IMG/VR virus record: IMGVR_UViG_2675903436_000002
Coordinates: 1-18,683 of that record
Source: a virus
Taxonomy: Duplodnaviria; Heunggongvirae; Uroviricota; Caudoviricetes
Length of the DNA: 18,683 nt
Direction: 5' to 3' (one strand)
Shown here: piece after piece, positions 2,826 through 18,683 of the stretch
Numbering within the stretch: the first letter of the stretch is position 1
Layout: the number at the start of each line of letters is the position of its first letter
The notes under the pieces: generated by a model
Seen by the model: the letters and a program-made list of their open reading frames with translations, nothing else
What the model was told of the DNA's origin: nothing
Database searches by the model: none
Position numbers and translations under genes: made by a program

Positions 2826-5800
2826 TCAATGTTCGCTTCCTGTTAACTGCCGGACAAGTGCAACCAGTTCGCTTACCTGATTTTCCAGAGTGCTGATCCG
2901 GGTGTCTGCTGTTGCCAGATTTTGACGTAGCGTTGTGTTTTCCTCTTCCAGCGCGGTAACGCGATCATCTGTTTCACGGGCGACCTGAACAAGTAAACCC
3001 GTCACGGCGGCGTAGTCAACATTAAGATAGCGCGTTTCTTCGCGTAGCTCGTTGCCGTCAACGGTCGGGCCTTGCAACTCTTCACCGTAATGAGTAAACG
3101 ATCCCACAGCTTCTGGTATCGCCTCCATTACTTCCTGTGCAATAACGCCAGCATAAGGCATCCCGTTTTCCCTGAGCGTGTAGGTGTATCCGTTCATTTT
3201 ACGGATTGCTTTCGTCGCGTCGCTGATAACGAGAATATCGTCTTTAAGGTCGCGGTCTGATGACTGATTCAGCGTTGTGCAATTAATAGCGCCATTTACA
3301 TCAAACAACTGGCCTGCTGACGTTTTTTGCGCATAAAACAGATACGCAGCAGACGTGCCAACCTCAAAAACGTTTTGTCGAGTACTGGAACCCCACACCC
3401 TGATACCAACTGGTAGTTCTGAATTACCTGAATTAAGTAAAGCAAAACGATTGCCAGTCCCTGTTTGTTTTCTAATTACTAAATCGGCAGTTGAGTTAAC
3501 CTCATCTTTGTTGATGGTTAGCGCCTGTGCTGTAGCACCGTTGACAGTACCGCTTAGTAGTTGCACCGCGCCATCATCGCCATTTAACAGCACTTGAGCG
3601 CTGCTTCTGTGGTTTTTAAGGCACAACATTTTTCCCGTGTTTTTCGATGTACCTACTGACCACGCCGAATTGGTTCCAGTGCTATCAACACCGCGCACAG
3701 CACAATTCATACTACTGTAATCTGACGTACTCCCCAGCACATCAACACGCCCGCCGCCTAATTTTGATGGAGTCGTCGAGGTTAACGACCTGACGGTTAC
3801 ATCCTGATTCCATCCTGAAACAACTACCTGACTCCACTCCGTCCAACTTCCATTGACAACAAAGCGAACGTATATGCGTTTTGTGTCGCTGCCAATCAGC
3901 GTTTGCATGATCGCATAATCTGAACCCGTAGTTTTACGAGTAGATTCTACACGTAGCAAAAAGTTACCGCTTACGCCGTCAGGCTTATTGGTAATATATG
4001 CACCACCTGCGACAGTTTTGCATTGATAGTATTTAACAGATCCAGCCACTGTATTAGCAATGATCAAGTCGTTTAAATCAATAGTCTTGTTGTCAATGGT
4101 TTCCGGCTCGATAGATCCCGCCATACCTGCGTTAAATGTGGCAAGGTCAGAAAAGGTTGTTTTACCGCCTACCGTCACCCCGCTATCGAGTTTTGCTTGT
4201 GTGATTACTTTGCTGTTTTTTGTGTGGTCAGAATAACTACCAAAATACAAATCACCGTCACCAGCTATACCTAGGTATTTTTGATCAACATCATCAACCT
4301 TAAACCCAATGGACAAGTTTTTAATTGTGTTGTTGCTCGTTAAAACCAAAGGCGTATGCTGAGATCCTTTGATGCTTACCGTAGTGTTATCGGAACTGGT
4401 GCTTGTGTTTGCAAATTCTGCGGTGGCTGCGCTGATTTTGTAAGTTATTTTTAGATTGCGGGCCTCAACCCTCCCGTCGTGGCGAACAATAAAATCACCA
4501 CTTGATTCACCTTTTGTGTTTTTCGCCCTGATGTGGATTTCGCCAAGTGATTCGTTGTTTTCAGGCGACCAAACAACGCCGCGCTCGCTTCCGTCGTTGT
4601 TCATGAACCACAGATGAGCGGTTCCTTTTGCTGATTTTAGCCTGATAGATGGCGTTTCTTTCAATATATCAAGATCACCAGACATAACATCGCCGGATTT
4701 TTTCACCTGCGCATCGTTCGTTACGTTGCCAAGTCCAACATCCGATTTCGACGGCTTGTTTGCCGAGCCGTATAGCTCATTGACGCTAAAAGTCCCGTTG
4801 TTAAGCCGGGCATCGTTGCCGGCATAGATCTTAATCTTCGCGGTTGAGTAGTCGATATTGATCGCTGACCACGTATCGCCGCACCGCGAGAATATACCAG
4901 AACCGTGGCTATAAATGGTCGCCGTGCTTCCGGTCGGCTTATCACCGCGCCAGAAATGACCACCTTTGTCACGCAGAGCTTTTAAGATCTCTACATCGCT
5001 CATCTTGCCGTTTGTTGATATCCCGCTACCGCCAAGACCGAAAGCGCCTGTAAGCATAGCATTAGAAAGACCCAAATCTGCTTTAGTCGGCTTGTTTAAC
5101 TGGTCGTAAATCCTTACAACGGGGCTTTCAACATATCCAGAAGGCGCGGCGGTTTGCTTAACAAATCCGTCTGGAATGTATAATTCCGTGCGTGCCGTCT
5201 GCGCCAGTACCGCAACCTTTGCGCCGTTGATAAATGCACGCTGGAAGGCCCAAACCTCAATAAAGCCATCATCTTTAACCAGGCCGTAACGCATTTGCAT
5301 GCTATTGATTAGCCCGGTTGGCCCTAAACGGCGTATACTCAGGTAATTCCGCTCTGCCTGCTCTTTTGCATCCTGCAAATCCTTCTGGCGTTTTTTCTCC
5401 TGAAGCTCGTTAAGACGCTGCTGATCGTACTCAACCTGAGAAGATGATGCCGTCCAGGGGAGTCTTTTCGCCCGCGACACTTTCTCCTGTAAAGCGGAAA
5501 TCTGTTCATCCAGCGAGTCTTCACGACCAATATTCATGGCCGCATCCCAGAAACGACTCCATAAATCAGACAGATACTTCAGCGTACTGCCCAGCGCATT
5601 GAGGTTATTATCAATATCCGCAGTACGCCGACCGGTTTCCTCTGCCAGTGCAGACATGGCTATCCGTGCCGCATCACTGGACCGCCCCTGTTCCCCAAGG
5701 ACGCGTATCTGCTCAAGCTGAGTGGCAGTAAGAAAATGCAGCTCATTGTCCAGAGCCTTCGCGGCATTTACAGGATCATCCTTCAGCCGCTTAAACTGAT

Positions 5801-6134
5801 TTATGGTATCGCTGACCGACTGGCCAACCGATCGCTCCATCTGTGCGGCAGCTCTCGCCACCATACCGATATCGTTTCCACGAAATGCACCACTCCCCAC
5901 CACCTGAGCCAGCGCACCGGCTGCAGCATGTTGCGTGATACCATTCCCGGAAATAGCACGACTGAGCGTCCACAGCTGCCCGGCAGTGACTCCGGCATAA
6001 TGCCCCGTCAGCGACAGCTGGCGGTTAAATTCTTCCCCCTCCTTCTGACCGTCATACCAGGCTTTACCCAGACCATAGACAGCCGCGGCAATACCGCCAA
6101 TAACCCCGCCAAGCATCATGCCTTTCGGTGACAT
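2826..6134 (-). CDS. Chimeric tail protein ORF: tape-measure (lambda H-like) N-terminal segment fused to a tail-fibre body with C-terminal intramolecular chaperone (peptidase S74-like) domain; probably a deletion-derived remnant
   Basis: First about 230 aa (hydrophobic GMMLGGVIGGIAAAVYGLGKAWYDG, then ...LSRA...DAAMNIGRED... coiled-coil) align by eye with lambda H residues about 130-350. The middle is Ser/Thr/Gly/Asn-rich with fibre-like motifs (SDVGLGNVTNDAQVKKSGDVMSGDLDI). The last 144 aa start with SDRDLKDDILVISD..., the autoproteolytic chaperone signature of endosialidase/T5 pb1-type fibres. ORF begins 6 nt after the truncated terminase stop with no RBS of its own; an ATG at 6134 and a TTG at 6137 are both possible starts. 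Confidence 0.6.
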   Translation of the reverse strand: MSPKGMMLGGVIGGIAAAVYGLGKAWYDGQKEGEEFNRQLSLTGHYAGVTAGQLWTLSRAISGNGITQHAAAGALAQVVGSGAFRGNDIGMVARAAAQMERSVGQSVSDTINQFKRLKDDPVNAAKALDNELHFLTATQLEQIRVLGEQGRSSDAARIAMSALAEETGRRTADIDNNLNALGSTLKYLSDLWSRFWDAAMNIGREDSLDEQISALQEKVSRAKRLPWTASSSQVEYDQQRLNELQEKKRQKDLQDAKEQAERNYLSIRRLGPTGLINSMQMRYGLVKDDGFIEVWAFQRAFINGAKVAVLAQTARTELYIPDGFVKQTAAPSGYVESPVVRIYDQLNKPTKADLGLSNAMLTGAFGLGGSGISTNGKMSDVEILKALRDKGGHFWRGDKPTGSTATIYSHGSGIFSRCGDTWSAINIDYSTAKIKIYAGNDARLNNGTFSVNELYGSANKPSKSDVGLGNVTNDAQVKKSGDVMSGDLDILKETPSIRLKSAKGTAHLWFMNNDGSERGVVWSPENNESLGEIHIRAKNTKGESSGDFIVRHDGRVEARNLKITYKISAATAEFANTSTSSDNTTVSIKGSQHTPLVLTSNNTIKNLSIGFKVDDVDQKYLGIAGDGDLYFGSYSDHTKNSKVITQAKLDSGVTVGGKTTFSDLATFNAGMAGSIEPETIDNKTIDLNDLIIANTVAGSVKYYQCKTVAGGAYITNKPDGVSGNFLLRVESTRKTTGSDYAIMQTLIGSDTKRIYVRFVVNGSWTEWSQVVVSGWNQDVTVRSLTSTTPSKLGGGRVDVLGSTSDYSSMNCAVRGVDSTGTNSAWSVGTSKNTGKMLCLKNHRSSAQVLLNGDDGAVQLLSGTVNGATAQALTINKDEVNSTADLVIRKQTGTGNRFALLNSGNSELPVGIRVWGSSTRQNVFEVGTSAAYLFYAQKTSAGQLFDVNGAINCTTLNQSSDRDLKDDILVISDATKAIRKMNGYTYTLRENGMPYAGVIAQEVMEAIPEAVGSFTHYGEELQGPTVDGNELREETRYLNVDYAAVTGLLVQVARETDDRVTALEEENTTLRQNLATADTRISTLENQVSELVALVRQLTGSEH

Positions 6135-6142
6135 CAATGTGT

Positions 6143-8454: not shown

Positions 8455-8916
8455 CTATCTGCACTGCTCATTAATATACTTCTGGGTTCCTTCCAGTTGT
8501 TTTTGCATAGTGATCAGCCTCTCTCTGAGGGTGAAATAATCCCGTTCAGCGGTGTCTGCCAGTCGGGGGGAGGCTGCATTATCCACGCCGGAGGCGGTGG
8601 TGGCTTCACGCACTGACTGACAGACTGCTTTGATGTGCAACCGACGACGACCAGCGGCAACATCATCACGCAGAGCATCATTTTCAGCTTTCGCATCAGC
8701 TAACTCCTTCGTGTATTTTGCATCGAGCGCAGCAACATCACGCTGACGCATCTGCATGTCAGTAATTGCCGCGTTCGCCAGCTTCAGTTCTTTGGCATTT
8801 TTGTCGCGCTGGGCTTTATAGGTAATGGCGTTATCACGGTAATGATTAACAGCCCATGACAGGCAGACGATGATGCAGATAACCAGAGCGGAGATAATCG
8901 CGGTTACTCTGTTCAT
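8455..8916 (-). CDS. rzpD: Rz i-spanin (inner-membrane spanin subunit)
   Basis: [21 protein letters not shown]... N-terminal TM followed by a charged coiled-coil; matches DLP12 RzpD / phage 21 Rz from memory. ATG at 8916 overlaps the endolysin stop (ATGA). Confidence 0.85.
8514..8696 (-). CDS. rzoD: Rz1 o-spanin lipoprotein, embedded in the +1 frame of Rz
   Basis: [23 protein letters not shown]... with lipobox VVGC and a proline-rich stretch ([13 protein letters not shown]), entirely inside Rz in a different frame. Confidence 0.75.
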
Positions 8917-9410
8917 TGCTGACCCCACAAACAGATTTCACGCTCAATCTCACGACGAGTCATGAGACCTTTCCATTGCTTACCGCCAGCATATGTCCAG
9001 CGACGTAACTGATCACATGCGCCTTTGATATCGCCCTGGTTTATTTTGCGAAGAAGCGTCGATGTTCTGAAATTGCCAGCACCCACGTTGTAAACGAATG
9101 AGTAAAGAGCGCCGCGCGTTGTTTCCGGTATATCGACTTCGATGTATGGGTTAATTTGTCTGGCGACAGTGGCAAGGTCTTTATTCAAGAGTGCTTTGCA
9201 TTCTGCTTTGGTATACGTTTTACCGAGCATGATGTCTTTTCCTGTATGCCCGTGACATACGGTCCATACACCAACAATATCTTTGTATGGTATGTAGCTG
9301 ACACCTTCCAGACCATCGTTACCACTTGGGCCAGTGATTAACACTGATGCTATAGCAATTGCTCCGCCACCAATAGCAGCAGCAACTGCTTTTCGTAATG
9401 ATGGAGGCAT
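8913..9410 (-). CDS. rrrD: SAR endolysin (T4-lysozyme-like muramidase with signal-anchor-release N-terminus)
   Basis: N-terminal Gly/Ala-rich weakly hydrophobic SAR segment ([20 protein letters not shown]) followed by a lysozyme-like domain; matches DLP12 RrrD / phage 21 R from memory. Start overlaps the holin stop. Confidence 0.9.
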
Positions 9411-9625
9411 TATTCACCTCTCGCAGCCTTGCGCTTATCTTCTTTAATCTTGAAATAAAGGTTTGTCAGGTACGTCAGCAAGCCAAATACCAGACTACCC
9501 AGCACACCTATTGCCGCCCACTGTGAGGGCGTGACTTTATCGAGCAGCTGTAAAAACCAGTAACCGGCACTACCTGCTGAGGTGCCATAGGCGACACCCG
9601 TTGTTAACTTATCCATGGATTTCAT
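9410..9625 (-). CDS. essD: Class II holin (phage 21 S / EssD-like) with dual-start motif
   Basis: [26 protein letters not shown]... with two TM segments; Met1-Lys-Ser-Met4 dual start typical of holin/antiholin pairs; SD GAGGTGG upstream of the ATG at 9625. The ORF track start at 9670 is 15 codons further upstream. Confidence 0.85.
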
Positions 9626-10214
9626 AACCCCACCTCGCAGACAAAGCGGGTGTAAATTGAGGGAATACAACGTATCGCAAAAAAGCAGAAACGTAACAGA
9701 CTCGGAGTCAGTGAATAACTCAGGTATTGAGTTATCAGCTAATATCGAGACTCAAAAAATGGAAAAACCAGCTCGACGGCGGGTTTAAGCTGTGTGACGA
9801 AGTAACCACTCTTAACAGCATAACCAATTTTTTACGTACGTAAACCACTGAATGATATTTATGAGAATGCTACCGAGTGTTCAAAACACCACCACAAATA
9901 CATAAGAAAACCTCAACAAATAACTAACAAATAATTTCCAGTGTTATTTTTAGCCGATTTAAATTGAATCTTCAAATTATAGAGCACTTATAAATAACAG
10001 CCGTTAATATAAATTGGCTAATAGATTTATTTTTATTCAGCCAAGAGCTATGAATAGGATTCGATAGAAAAAAGTTCAGATAAAAATAGAGATCTACTTC
10101 ACAAATCAAACGAGAAACCAAAACTTACATCTTGAAATAATCACATTGATTAGATGAATATTTATCGCGCAGTGACATCATTTTTTAATAATAGTTCAAA
10201 AAAAAGGGCTCACG

Positions 10215-11312
10215 ATGAAAAAATTAACAGTGGCAATTTCTGCTGTAGCTGCATCAGTACTGATGGCGATGTCTGCTCAGGCAGCTGAAATTTATAATAA
10301 AGACAGTAACAAGCTGGATCTGTACGGGAAAGTTAATGCTAAGCACTACTTCTCCTCTAATGATGCAGATGATGGTGATACTACTTATGCCCGTCTTGGC
10401 TTCAAAGGTGAAACCCAAATCAACGATCAACTGACTGGTTTCGGTCAGTGGGAATATGAATTCAAAGGCAACCGCGCTGAATCTCAAGGTTCCTCCAAAG
10501 ATAAAACCCGTCTTGCCTTCGCTGGCCTGAAATTCGGTGACTACGGCTCCATCGATTACGGCCGTAACTACGGTGTAGCATACGACATCGGTGCGTGGAC
10601 TGACGTCCTGCCAGAATTCGGTGGTGACACTTGGACTCAAACCGACGTGTTCATGACTCAACGTGCAACTGGTGTTGCAACCTATCGTAACAACGACTTC
10701 TTTGGTCTGGTTGATGGTCTGAACTTTGCTGCTCAGTACCAAGGCAAAAACGATCGTAGCGATTTCGATAACTACACTGAAGGTAACGGTGATGGCTTCG
10801 GTTTCTCTGCTACCTATGAATACGAAGGATTCGGTATCGGTGCAACTTATGCGAAATCTGATCGTACCGACACTCAAGTTAATGCAGGGAAAGTTCTTCC
10901 TGAAGTATTTGCTTCCGGTAAAAATGCAGAAGTTTGGGCCGCAGGTCTGAAATATGACGCTAACAACATTTACCTGGCCACTACCTATTCTGAAACCCAG
11001 AATATGACTGTATTTGCTGATCACTTCGTTGCTAATAAAGCCCAAAACTTCGAAGCTGTTGCACAATATCAGTTCGATTTCGGTCTGCGTCCGTCCGTTG
11101 CTTACCTGCAATCTAAAGGTAAGGATCTTGGAGTATGGGGCGATCAGGACTTAGTCAAATATGTTGATGTAGGTGCAACCTATTACTTCAACAAAAATAT
11201 GTCTACTTTCGTTGATTACAAAATCAACCTGCTTGACAAAAATGACTTCACTAAAGCACTCGGTGTAAGCACTGATGACATCGTTGCTGTAGGTCTGGTT
11301 TACCAGTTCTAA
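10215..11312 (+). CDS. nmpC: Prophage-encoded OmpC-family general porin (NmpC/Lc/OmpD-like), apparently intact
   Basis: 365 aa with signal peptide [23 protein letters not shown], porin motifs and a C-terminal ...VGLVYQF ending in Phe. Located between Q and the holin on the opposite strand, as nmpC is in DLP12 and lc in PA-2. Confidence 0.9.
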
Positions 11313-11478
11313 TCTGATTACGAAAAAGATATGTTGCGGGAGGCGTTGCCTCCCCAACATATAAGTGGCTCCCTCAAGCCACTTCCTTTAGAAGCACAAC
11401 CTTGCTTCTAACTATATAAACCTTCTGTTATATATTACCCTTTATTTTTGGGGGCGTCTCAACGCCCCATTTTTAATA
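11312..11478 (+). ncRNA. Possible IpeX-like small RNA / porin 3' UTR hairpin cluster ending in a rho-independent terminator
   Basis: Four consecutive hairpins: 11338..11354 (GGGAGGC/GCCTCCC), 11363..11384 (AAGTGGCT/AGCCACTT), 11389..11410 (TAGAAGCA/TGCTTCTA) and 11450..11468 (GGGGGCG/CGCCCC) followed by ATTTTTAATAATTTTT. In DLP12 the sRNA IpeX maps to the nmpC 3' end (from memory); boundaries here are guesses. Confidence 0.3.
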
Positions 11479-11501
11479 ATTTTTAGTAAACAATTGGCAT
11501 A

Positions 11502-11885
11502 TTAATTAGAGTTATTAACAACGATATCCATCTCTAACCGGATATCTAATGCCATTAACATCCCTTCAATTATGCCCTCAGCCTTCTGTAACCTTTTCCC
11601 GATATAACCATCAGAGCAGCAATGCTTACCTGCCAGTGACATGAATGTCATACCGACTACATAATAATCTACTAATAAATCGTGCAAATCGCTGTTGTTC
11701 TTTTTCAGACGGGCCATGCACCCGCAAATAATCATCGCGTCATCGTCACAACATTGCGGGCGAGATTTTACTTTTGAAGTAATTAATCCCTTAAAACCGG
11801 CGGCAATGGACGACCAGGTCACATCTTCATGATTATTAGCCGCCCACGCTCCCCAACGCTCAAGAACCATCTGAATATCACGCAT
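11502..11885 (-). CDS. quuD: Late-gene antiterminator Q (phage 82 / QuuD-like)
   Basis: [24 protein letters not shown]...[16 protein letters not shown]... matches DLP12 QuuD from memory. ATG at 11885 has a GGAG SD; the ORF track start at 11900 is a TTG. Confidence 0.85.
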
Positions 11886-15863: not shown

Positions 15864-16185
15864 GGCCTGTCAGTTTCTTAAGATATCCAGACCAACCGCC
15901 ACCAACTGGATACGAACAGGCCGCCTACAGGCAACACGTAAAGATCCAACCAAGCCAAAATCTCCTTACCTCACAACACGGCAAGCCTGCATTGCGGCGC
16001 TTCAGTCTCCGCTGCATACTGTCCAGGTGAGCGCGGGTGATGGCATAACAGAGGAAAGAAAATGTCACTCTTCCGCAGAAGTGAAATATGGTACGCCAGT
16101 TTCACATTGCCGAACGGTAAAAGATTTAAACAGTCTCTTGGAACAAAGGACAAAAGGCAGGCGACAGAGCTCCATGACAAGCTAA
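15835..16185 (+). CDS. xis: Excisionase (Xis, P22-type, winged-helix)
   Basis: [31 protein letters not shown]... HTH typical of Xis/AlpA-like excisionases; 116 aa; AGAGG SD; 3' end overlaps the int start. Confidence 0.7.
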
Positions 16186-17225
16186 AGGCTGAAGCATGGC
16201 GGGTCAGCAAACTTGGTGAAATACCTGATATAACGTTCGAGGAAGCGTGTGTCAGGTGGCTTGAAGAGAAAGCACATAAAAAATCACTGGACGATGACAA
16301 AAGCCGGATCGGATTCTGGCTTCAACATTTCGCAGGAATGCAACTAAGAGACATTACTGAATCAAAAATTTATTCAGCAATGCAGAAAATGACGAACCGG
16401 CGTCATGAGGAAAACTGGAAACTCAGGGCAGAAGCATGCAGAAAAAAAGGGAAACCTGTTCCAGAATACACGCCAAAACCAGCGTCCGTTGCAACGAAGG
16501 CTACGCATCTTTCATTTATAAAGGCCCTACTAAGAGCCGCAGAGCGTGAATGGAAAATGCTGGATAAGGCACCAATTATTAAAGTGCCCCAACCAAAGAA
16601 TAAACGGATCCGCTGGCTGGAGCCCCATGAAGCACAAAGACTGATTGATGAATGTCCGGAGCCATTAAAGTCTGTTGTTGAATTTGCACTGGCAACAGGC
16701 CTAAGACGCTCGAACATCATCAACCTTGAATGGCAACAAATAGATATGCAGCGCCGGGTGGCATGGATAAACCCGGAAGAGAGTAAATCAAACCGCGCAA
16801 TTGGCGTTGCGCTGAATGATACTGCATGTCGCGTACTGAAAAAACAAATCGGGAATCATCACCGTTGGGTATTTGTGTACAAGGAAAGCTGTACCAAACC
16901 AGACGGAACGAAAGCGCCAGCAGTAAGGAAGATGCGGTATGACGCAAACACAGCCTGGAAAGCGGCGCTGAGACGGGCTGGTATTGATGATTTCAGATTT
17001 CACGACTTGAGACACACCTGGGCAAGTTGGCTGGTTCAAGCCGGAGTCCCGTTGTCAGTGTTACAGGAAATGGGAGGCTGGGAGTCTATCGAAATGGTTC
17101 GTCGATATGCTCACCTTGCACCTAATCACCTTACCGAACACGCACGGCAAATAGACTCGATCCTGAACCCATCGGTCCCAAATTTGTCCCAGTCAAAAAA
17201 TAAGGAAGGTACTAATGATGTGTAA
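16062..17225 (+). CDS. int: Tyrosine integrase, P22-type (thrW-specific)
   Basis: 387 aa [41 protein letters not shown]... with C-terminal [39 protein letters not shown] catalytic region; very close to P22 Int as remembered; ends 14 nt from the tRNA 3' end. Confidence 0.92.
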
Positions 17226-17239
17226 CTTATTGATTTAAA

Positions 17240-17315
17240 TGGTGCCGATAATAGGAGTCGAACCTACGACCTTCGCATTACGAATGCGCTGCTCTACCAA
17301 CTGAGCTATATCGGC
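17240..17315 (-). tRNA. thrW: tRNA-Thr (anticodon CGU), thrW-like; prophage attachment site at its 3' end
   Basis: Reverse complement GCCGATATAGCTCAGTTGGTAGAGCAGCGCATTCGTAATGCGAAGGTCGTAGGTTCGACTCCTATTATCGGCACCA folds as a canonical 76-nt tRNA with anticodon CGT and encoded CCA. Confidence 0.95.
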
Positions 17316-17429: not shown

Positions 17430-18683
17430 TTACGCACGAATGGTGTAATCACCAATGCCGATCCACTTGTAAGTGGTCAGTGCTTCCAGCCCCATTGGGC
17501 CACGCGCGTGGAGTTTTTGTGTGCTTACCGCCACTTCCGCACCCAGACCAAACTGGCCGCCGTCGGTAAAACGCGTAGAGGCGTTAACGTAAACAGCGGA
17601 CGAATCCACTTCGTTAACAAAACGCTGGGCGTTGCGCATATCGCGGGTCAGGATCGCATCGGAGTGTTGTGTGCCGTGTTCACGAATATGGGCGATGGCA
17701 TCGTCAAGATCGCTGACGATTTTGACGTTCAAATCTAATGACAGAAACTCATCGTCATACTCTTCGGCTTTAACAGCAACCACCTTCGCAGGGCCTGCCT
17801 GCAACTGCGCCAGTGCAGCTGCATCTGCGTGTAATGTCACGCCGCTTTCCGCCATTTGTTTGCTTAATGCGGGCAGGAAGCTATCGGCGATGTTTTTATT
17901 CACCAGCAACGTTTCAACCGTATTACATGTGCTCGGACGCTGAGTTTTCGCGTTGACGATCACTTTTAATGCTTCAGCGATCTCTACACTTTCATCAACG
18001 TAAATATGGCATACGCCTATACCACCTGTGATCACCGGGATTGTCGACTGTTCACGGCACAGTTTATGCAAACCAGCGCCACCACGCGGGATCAGCATGT
18101 CGATGTATTTATCCATACGCAGCATTTCACTGACCAGCGCACGGTCAGGATTATCAATCGCCTGCACGGCACCCGCCGGTAAGCCGCAGGATTTCAGGGC
18201 GTCCTGAATCACCGCCACCGTTGCAGCGTTAGTGCGACACGTTTCTTTGCCACCGCGCAGGATCACCGCATTACCGGTTTTCAGGCACAGCGAAGCGACA
18301 TCAACCGTCACGTTCGGGCGCGCTTCATAAATCACGCCAATAACCCCCAGCGGTACGCGACGACGCTCAAGACGCAGGCCGCTGTCCAGTACGCCGCCAT
18401 CGATTACCTGCCCCACCGGATCGGCGAGGTTGCACACCTGACGTACATCGTCGGCAATGCCTTTCAGCCGTGCGGGCGTCAGTGCCAGACGGTCAAGCAT
18501 CGCTTCGCTAAGGCCATTGGCTCGCGCGTCAGCAACATCCTGGGCGTTAGCGTTGAGGATGATTTCGCTTTGTGCTTCCAGTTCATCGGCGATTTTTTCC
18601 AGCACGCGATTTTTTTCGCGGCTGGAGAGTTGCGCTAATTTATACGAGGCTTGCTTCGCGGCAATGCCCATTTGTTCCAGCAT
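17430..18683 (-). CDS. proA: Gamma-glutamyl phosphate reductase (ProA)
   Basis: 417 aa starting [38 protein letters not shown]..., an aldehyde-dehydrogenase-fold protein matching E. coli ProA; start codon is the last three bases of the window. Confidence 0.95.

Follow-up and report, generated by a model that had tools for sequence, protein, structure and literature searches.

What is the porin unit that lies between the antiterminator gene Q and the lysis genes of this prophage, and how might the hairpin-rich sequence at its 3' end act on the porins of the host? A phage that replaces the major porins of its host alters outer-membrane permeability, the availability of phage receptors and, reportedly, heat resistance, and this much is established biology. 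In the stretch of viral DNA analysed here (18,683 nucleotides in all, hereafter the window), a preliminary description made from the letters alone had proposed an intact OmpC-family porin gene at 9671-11480, transcribed against the late operon, preceded by a long AT-rich region and followed by four consecutive hairpins forming an 'IpeX-like' element. Our analysis indicates that the unit is very probably the intact lc/nmpC-ipeX 'porin exchange' moron of lambdoid phages (PA-2, DLP12/qsr'), carried by a defective thrW prophage. The module, an lc/nmpC phage moron with a known regulatory RNA, is already known; the sole item that goes beyond the literature is a predicted antisense pairing of this RNA with ompC and ompF.

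The identity of the locus follows from comparison with sequenced relatives. Over all 1810 bp, positions 9671-11480 are 98.3% identical to the lc locus of phage PA-2 (GenBank J02580), and the same interval matches a 434B phage with an acquired DLP12 qsr' region at 99.0%, some 35 lambdoid phages at 88-99% and a prophage of E. coli P470 at 100%. Similarity to ipeX, the point on which the preliminary description had staked its 3' element, is complete: positions 11253-11520 are 100% identical to both MG1655 DLP12 and PA-2, running from the IS5 insertion point through the 189-bp intergenic region into quuD. The gene order quuD-porin-essD-rrrD-rzpD is likewise shared with DLP12. Judged by this identity, the 3' element is the published ipeX locus itself, so that the proposed relation to ipeX was right and the suffix '-like' is superfluous. 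The span first delimited was accurate for the whole unit, and the functional 3' element is best taken as 11313 to ~11479. A scan of the whole window against Rfam 15 at gathering thresholds returned the tRNA-Thr alone and matched no sRNA family; we know of no IpeX family in Rfam, and in the MG1655 RefSeq record ipeX carries no annotation.

Reviews describe IpeX as an RNA of DLP12 and PA-2 (167 nt in a review table) that is made from the phage porin transcript and represses OmpC and OmpF, and one review has it processed out of a longer transcript. In keeping with this length, 162-167 nt lie between the end of the porin stop codon (11312) and the end of the terminator U-tract (11474) in the window. 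The original description of IpeX is said to place ipeX between the nmpC stop codon and the nmpC terminator, to find an identical sequence after lc in PA-2 and to show that lc transcription inhibits OmpC. OmpA was reportedly unaffected, no complementarity to the ompC untranslated region was seen, and the effect was Hfq-independent for ompC, not for ompF.

The porin gene itself is intact, as first proposed. Residues 29-365 of its product align with positions 1-337 of the 337-position Pfam profile Porin_1 (PF00267; 523 bits), and the protein scores 529.8 against the NCBIfam OmpC subfamily NF007841 (cut-off 484). It has an N-terminal signal peptide and ends in VYQF, with an aromatic last residue; no IS5 interrupts it, and it is identical to PA-2 Lc at 361 of 365 residues with 0 gaps. 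The four residue differences may be errors in the 1986 PA-2 sequence. An antisense ORF of 69 aa at 11151-11360, present as 'ORF1' in the PA-2 record, has no Pfam match and was taken as non-coding.

Upstream of the porin, the G+C content falls to 26-30% at 9800-10200, against 44-52% in the flanking genes, which bears out the long AT-rich region of the preliminary description. This region is 97.9-98.3% identical to J02580, and the two CRP sites annotated in that record correspond to ~9790-9810 and ~10086-10106 here. A sigma-70 consensus scan of the plus strand (at least 9 of 12 positions) gave no match upstream of the porin, and the PA-2-annotated CRP sites are the only pointer to a porin promoter. 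Of the four features that mark a lambdoid moron, a terminator of its own, an AT-rich flank and a site between Q and S are present; a promoter of its own was not recovered by the consensus scan.

The placement between Q and the lysis genes is borne out by Pfam matches to the right (PF06530) and to the left (PF04971, PF00959 and PF03245; Table 1). Transcription against the late operon is supported by gene orientation only. A consensus scan of the minus strand between Q and S revealed no late promoter pR', inspection by eye gave weak candidates only, and a published account of the DLP12 lysis promoter numbers it only from an unlisted TSS. We assign the prophage to thrW because tRNA-Thr(CGU) abuts the integrase gene with proA beyond it. 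Only ~4 kb separate int from Q, a late-side ORF of 1103 aa begins like a tape-measure protein and continues into the S74 chaperone domain of a tail fibre, a fusion of the two, and the best coverage of the window at a single place in any E. coli genome is 66% or less. The element is a decayed, mosaic, defective prophage, and the porin module is among its intact parts.

Table 1. Features of the porin-ipeX locus and its prophage surroundings (window positions).
Feature	Position	Strand	Basis or remark
Bor/Iss lipoprotein gene	8082/8130-8423	+	left of the lysis cassette
Late lysis cassette S/R/Rz	8455..9625	-	ORF and Pfam matches
Rz	8455..8916/8928	-	PF03245
SAR-type phage lysozyme (endolysin)	8913..9410	-	PF00959
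Phage-21-type (S21) holin	9410..9625/9670	-	PF04971
AT-rich region upstream of porin, regulatory	9671..10214	+	GC 26-34%
Intact lc/nmpC porin gene (ATG start, 365 aa)	10215..11312	+	ORF call, profile matches, PA-2 comparison
Porin signal peptide	10215-10283	+	as annotated in J02580
ipeX: porin mRNA 3' UTR and small RNA IpeX, ~167 nt	11313..~11479	+	100% identity, fold, literature
Hairpin 1 (15 bp, one bulged C, loop GUU)	11329..11362	+	fold
Hairpin 2 (8 bp)	11363..11384	+	fold
Hairpin 3 (9 bp)	11388..11411	+	fold
Hairpin 4 (weak, 7 A/U pairs, 8-nt loop ACCUUCUG, anti-Shine-Dalgarno-like)	11413..11434	+	fold
Predicted antisense 'seed' (hairpin-4 loop and linker)	11419..11447	+	complementarity to ompC leader
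Intrinsic terminator of porin/ipeX transcript (GGGGCGU-CUCA-ACGCCCC, then AUUUUU)	11451..11474 (stem 11451-11468)	+	fold
Q antiterminator, quuD-type, Q21 family (127/132 aa)	11502..11885/11900	-	PF06530; convergent with porin
Integrase gene	16062..17225		proA beyond adjoining tRNA
tRNA-Thr(CGU)	17240-17315		adjoins integrase gene

The 3' flank is strongly structured. The minimum free energy of 11310-11480 is -62.9 kcal/mol, compared with -30.8 +/- 3.8 kcal/mol in 200 dinucleotide-shuffled sequences, none of which folded as stably (z = -8.4). The four hairpins ending in a terminator that had been noticed from the letters alone correspond to those that contain G+C, and the predicted fold adds a fifth, weak A/U hairpin (hairpin 4). 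The terminator was also called by an independent consensus scan. Hairpin 1 could possibly serve as a minus-strand terminator facing Q, since CUUUUUCG comes next to it on that strand.

Divergence among alleles is too low to judge this fold. Among 10 aligned alleles, none of the 56 predicted pairs had a compensatory double change, the alleles being too similar; a larger IMG/VR set has no power for covariation either, its 136 loci yielding 47 different alleles whose identity is always above 90%. Variation in the 47 alleles is concentrated in the first 16 nt, in three loops (those of hairpin 1, hairpin 3 and the terminator) and in the sequence beyond the terminator. Single base changes are compatible with the predicted structure: a C45>G change, located in the 3' arm, gives the bulged C of hairpin 1 a partner, an A>G change in hairpin 3, found in half of the alleles, retains a G.U pair, and CFT073-type alleles break the two uppermost pairs in hairpin 2. 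Neither the loop nor the 3' arm of hairpin 4 varies in the 47 alleles; its 5' arm does, as do other loops. The seed block defined in Table 1 is kept in 132 of the 133 loci found by the hairpin-1/2 pattern, and the hairpin pattern in 132 of the 135 found by the seed, so that the seed block is conserved no better than the hairpin-1/2 block.

For two decades the mechanism of IpeX has been considered unexplained, and complementarity to its targets offers a simple hypothesis. The stretch 11419-11447 is the most accessible (unpaired) part of IpeX. Within it, AACCUUCUGUUAUAU (11419-11433) is complementary to positions -21 to -7 of ompC (AUAUAACAGAGGGUU) in a helix with a single G.U pair that spans the Shine-Dalgarno sequence of the K-12 leader; after a 5-nt bulge, CCUUUAUUU (11439-11447) is complementary to ompC -31 to -23. 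The predicted duplex has 15 + 9 bp over ompC -31 to -7, and its two helices together contain the validated MicC site AAUAAAGGCAUAUAAC. On the target side, 5364 of 5426 E. coli genomes have the segment ompC -40 to -1 at 99% identity or more. A shorter match, UUAUAUAUUACCCU, is complementary at 13 of 14 nt to the Shine-Dalgarno region of ompF, the site of MicF.

Two kinds of score set this match apart from chance. Under local complementarity scoring (+2/-3, gaps -5/-2) with dinucleotide shuffles as null, IpeX/ompC reaches 32, the same value as MicC/ompC; none of 2000 shuffled IpeX sequences and 1 of 2000 shuffled ompC sequences attain it. IpeX/ompF scores 23 (reached by 35 of 2000 shuffled IpeX and 25 of 2000 shuffled target sequences), and IpeX/ompA, at 14, lies at or below the shuffle mean. 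A windowed search for the sum of hybridisation and opening energies chooses the same ompC site and gives it an accessibility-corrected energy of -13.1 kcal/mol, reached by none of 160 shuffled ompC sequences (mean -4.4 kcal/mol) and by none of a small background of 85 real ORF start regions (mean -2.4 kcal/mol). The corresponding value for ompF is -10.2 kcal/mol, with 1 of the 85 ORF start regions as good, and that for ompA is -4.2 kcal/mol, at background level. With exact opening energies, the IpeX-ompC interaction has -15.6 kcal/mol, compared with -14.7 kcal/mol for the validated MicC-ompC core. Windowed duplex energy taken alone, with accessibility left aside, is not significant (17 of 250 shuffled IpeX and 59 of 250 shuffled targets are as good), because G+C-rich stems pair by chance. 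Full-length RNAduplex calculations yielded unrealistic whole-molecule duplexes and were dropped.

The predicted ranking ompC > ompF >> ompA matches the reported specificity. Reviews present IpeX as the exception among the sRNAs that control porins, lacking complementarity to ompC and not acting by base pairing, and our full-text literature search, which was not exhaustive, returned no report of an IpeX-ompC pairing; the antisense match to the ompC ribosome-binding region is apparently unreported. We tentatively propose that repression would occur by antisense pairing of 11419-11447 with ompC -31 to -7 and by a shorter pairing over the ompF Shine-Dalgarno sequence, a proposal to which we give not quite an even chance. 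The same guarded weight, just under one half, applies to the view of IpeX as a MicC/MicF-like antisense RNA that would form ~24 bp on the ompC leader and ~13 bp on the Shine-Dalgarno region of ompF. If true, the pairing would explain both the target specificity of IpeX and its Hfq independence for ompC, and a prophage 3' UTR found in nearly half of E. coli genomes would be mimicking a core-genome sRNA to swap porins.

Shown directly here are the sequence identities, the ORF, the fold and the terminator; the sequence of events that we envisage on this basis is as follows. In a lysogen, the porin would be transcribed from its own putative promoter in the AT-rich region, on the strand opposite to the late genes, and the transcript would stop at the terminator at 11451-11474. 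Translation of this mRNA would supply the new general porin Lc/NmpC, and the structured 3' UTR, IpeX, would lower OmpC and OmpF synthesis post-transcriptionally (the repression itself is taken from the literature), acting while still attached to the mRNA or after processing to a fragment of ~165 nt. In the predicted contact, the hairpin-4 loop and the linker would pair over the MicC site and the Shine-Dalgarno sequence of ompC, and hairpins 1-3, together with the terminator, would serve chiefly for stability and for termination. The production of Lc/NmpC, together with reduced OmpC and OmpF synthesis, would thus switch the outer membrane from OmpC/OmpF to the phage porin. OmpC is the receptor of PA-2 itself, and the switch would therefore add protection against superinfection.

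The strongest competing explanation is that IpeX represses OmpC and OmpF by means other than base pairing: its hairpins may titrate an RNA-binding protein or RNase, or envelope stress may be involved, and the complementarity would then be a historical or chance by-product. We consider this a serious possibility, with odds somewhat on the low side of even. It accords with the denial of complementarity and the Hfq-independent ompC effect given in reviews, with the non-significant energy-only test, and with the stems of hairpins 1-3 being as strongly conserved as the seed. Against it stand a complementarity score equal to that of MicC/ompC (p ~0.001 or less), an accessibility-aware energy better than every control and a predicted site that covers the Shine-Dalgarno sequence; moreover, the predicted order of ompC, ompF and ompA mirrors the reported phenotype, and a long duplex of 24 bp could in itself explain why Hfq is dispensable for ompC.

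It is improbable that prophage decay has left the porin as a silent remnant, comparable to K-12 nmpC, in which case neither porin nor ipeX would be of importance here. The defects of the prophage (the ~4 kb between int and Q, the fused tape-measure/tail-fibre ORF) fit such a relic, as does a very AT-rich upstream region of the kind typical of H-NS-silenced DNA, a link to H-NS that we infer. Nevertheless, the gene has an intact ORF, signal peptide and terminator and no IS5, CFT073 and AW1.7 express near-identical alleles, and 46% of E. coli genomes have kept the element. Least likely is that the hairpin array consists only of convergent terminators, insulators and mRNA 3'-end stabilisers between porin and Q with no role in trans, as the plus-strand terminator formed by the last hairpin, the U-run after hairpin 1 on the minus strand, the absence of covariation and the RepRanger classification of ipeX as REP-containing might suggest: the sequence is identical to one that reviews report to repress OmpC and OmpF, two terminators leave three conserved stem-loops and an invariant single-stranded block unexplained, and both roles can coexist. 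A role in trans is also favoured by the effect on OmpC and OmpF that was reportedly seen on multicopy expression of ipeX alone.

Several known systems are close to this locus. One is lc with ipeX in PA-2 (J02580; Blasband et al. 1986, Castillo-Keller et al. 2006), where the ipeX 3' UTR is 100% alike and the S/R/Rz flank and CRP-annotated upstream region are the same; PA-2 is an active phage, whereas the module here sits in a defective prophage at thrW. In K-12 DLP12 (qsr'), with the arrangement nmpC::IS5-ipeX-quuD, IS5 splits nmpC after codon 346 and uncouples ipeX from the porin promoter. The porin gene in the window is uninterrupted, unlike K-12 nmpC, so ipeX should be co-transcribed with it.

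The predicted IpeX-ompC site contains that of MicC, the ompF match overlaps that of MicF, and scores and energies are equal or similar. The two systems differ in that IpeX belongs to the 3' UTR of an mRNA for a phage porin, whereas MicC and MicF are encoded by free-standing divergent genes, and in that the predicted IpeX seed is an internal loop and linker next to the terminator, is interrupted by a 5-nt bulge and reaches across the Shine-Dalgarno sequence. Pairing by IpeX is moreover a prediction set against published statements, unlike that of MicC and MicF. The 5' end of MicC has the blocks GUUAUAU and CCUUUAUU in common with IpeX. Homology of IpeX to MicC or MicF is not claimed, same-strand similarity being weak (p ~0.03 and ~0.15, respectively) and the best MicC match lying elsewhere in the RNA.

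Among 3'-UTR sRNAs, CpxQ, DapZ, SroC and MalH are, like IpeX, embedded in an mRNA 3' end and share the terminator of that mRNA, and they have, as predicted for IpeX, a single-stranded seed just upstream of the terminator; IpeX differs by four extra stem-loops and by its reported Hfq-free action on ompC. As a moron, the porin unit would resemble bor/iss and lom, autonomous transcription units inserted among late genes that are active in the lysogen and encode an outer-membrane protein; it departs from them in its location between Q and S and in coupling a protein to a regulatory RNA.

The element is common in E. coli. Of 5426 complete E. coli genomes, 2510 (46%) carry the 189-bp ipeX element, nearly always at 90-100% identity and in up to three copies per genome; 36 phage records carry it as well. 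Among the records listed, the only feature under it is a putative CDS in three phage records, named 'ORF1' or 'hypothetical protein', and never ipeX. A 21-nt motif of hairpins 1-2, searched in one genome per species across 185,579 species, was found in Escherichia only, apart from one contaminant-like contig of 442 bp. In the copies that were checked, the porin gene always precedes ipeX, and quuD faces it in all but one rearranged copy. The RNA is thus unannotated in RefSeq genomes and phage records, yet present in nearly every second complete E. coli genome. Most of these copies, unlike that of K-12, stand behind an intact porin gene and are therefore probably expressed; they may shape OmpC and OmpF levels, and hence antibiotic entry, in clinical strains. 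In CFT073, where the element is present twice, both nmpC genes are induced and ompC is reduced at 37 C, the reverse of K-12, an expression pattern that provides circumstantial support for the proposed action on ompC.

The late promoter pR', the expected target of the Q antiterminator, was not found on the minus strand between window positions 9671 and 11501, and a sigma-70 consensus scan of the same strand across the whole interval from Q to the holin gene returned zero matches. If pR' does adjoin Q, late transcription must cross ipeX, the small RNA element in the porin 3' region, and the entire porin gene in antisense. Judging from its sequence, hairpin 1 of ipeX is, when read on this strand, a plausible intrinsic terminator for transcription arriving from the Q side, and would make a convergent terminator pair with that of the porin. 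It was not called by the terminator consensus scan, which overlooks it because its stem has a bulge.

Features of the window on the strand opposite ipeX and around the integration site
Feature	Window position	Strand	Description
ipeX hairpin 1, minus-strand reading	11329-11362	-	15-bp stem, then CUUUUUCG
1103-aa ORF	2826-6137	-	TMP_2 (tape-measure, N-terminal) and Peptidase_S74 (tail-fibre/endosialidase chaperone) domains
tRNA-Thr(CGU) (thrW) and tyrosine integrase gene	16062-17315		directly adjoining
proA	17430-18683		on far side of thrW/integrase

The predicted antisense stretch of IpeX (11419-11447) scored 25 against the start region of ompN, a value above chance that was reached by 16/2000 and 12/2000 shuffles; once accessibility was counted, the interaction was weak (-1.6 kcal/mol). 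Annotation of ipeX is absent from all listed E. coli genomes and phage records bearing the element. The MG1655 RefSeq record carries micC and micF as ncRNA genes, and ipeX (NC_000913.3 574340-574528; L001 3341-3529) lies there without any feature.

Two E. coli strains hold rearranged or truncated copies. Trh52 (O84:H7; L007 1418-2700) has a porin gene and a 90%-identical ipeX flanked by yedK and ybcM/ybcL/emrE, with neither Q nor lysis genes, and its sequence diverges 3' of the ipeX terminator; the copy has been left stranded in a DLP12-like remnant that is itself rearranged. The JB2 locus (L009 1224-2564) contains an IS5-family (ISKpn26-like) insertion, through which most of the porin gene is gone and ipeX has lost its 5' two-thirds, leaving only the last 64 bp. 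The disruption recalls that by IS5 in K-12; the two insertions are independent.

The prophage is integrated at thrW, whereas DLP12 of K-12 occupies argU. The open reading frame joining tape-measure and chaperone domains is probably a deletion fusion within a decaying prophage.

The region around Q has the look of a hot spot for cargo that modifies the envelope. Homology between the window and phage Lambda_ev087 stops at the Q stop codon; that phage (L005 2576-3634) has the same Q allele, 89% identical, followed by a different moron, a reverse-oriented Blc lipocalin gene. Phage 434B (L004 3053-4012) carries an LpxR-like lipid A deacylase gene, also reverse-oriented, immediately upstream of this Q region.
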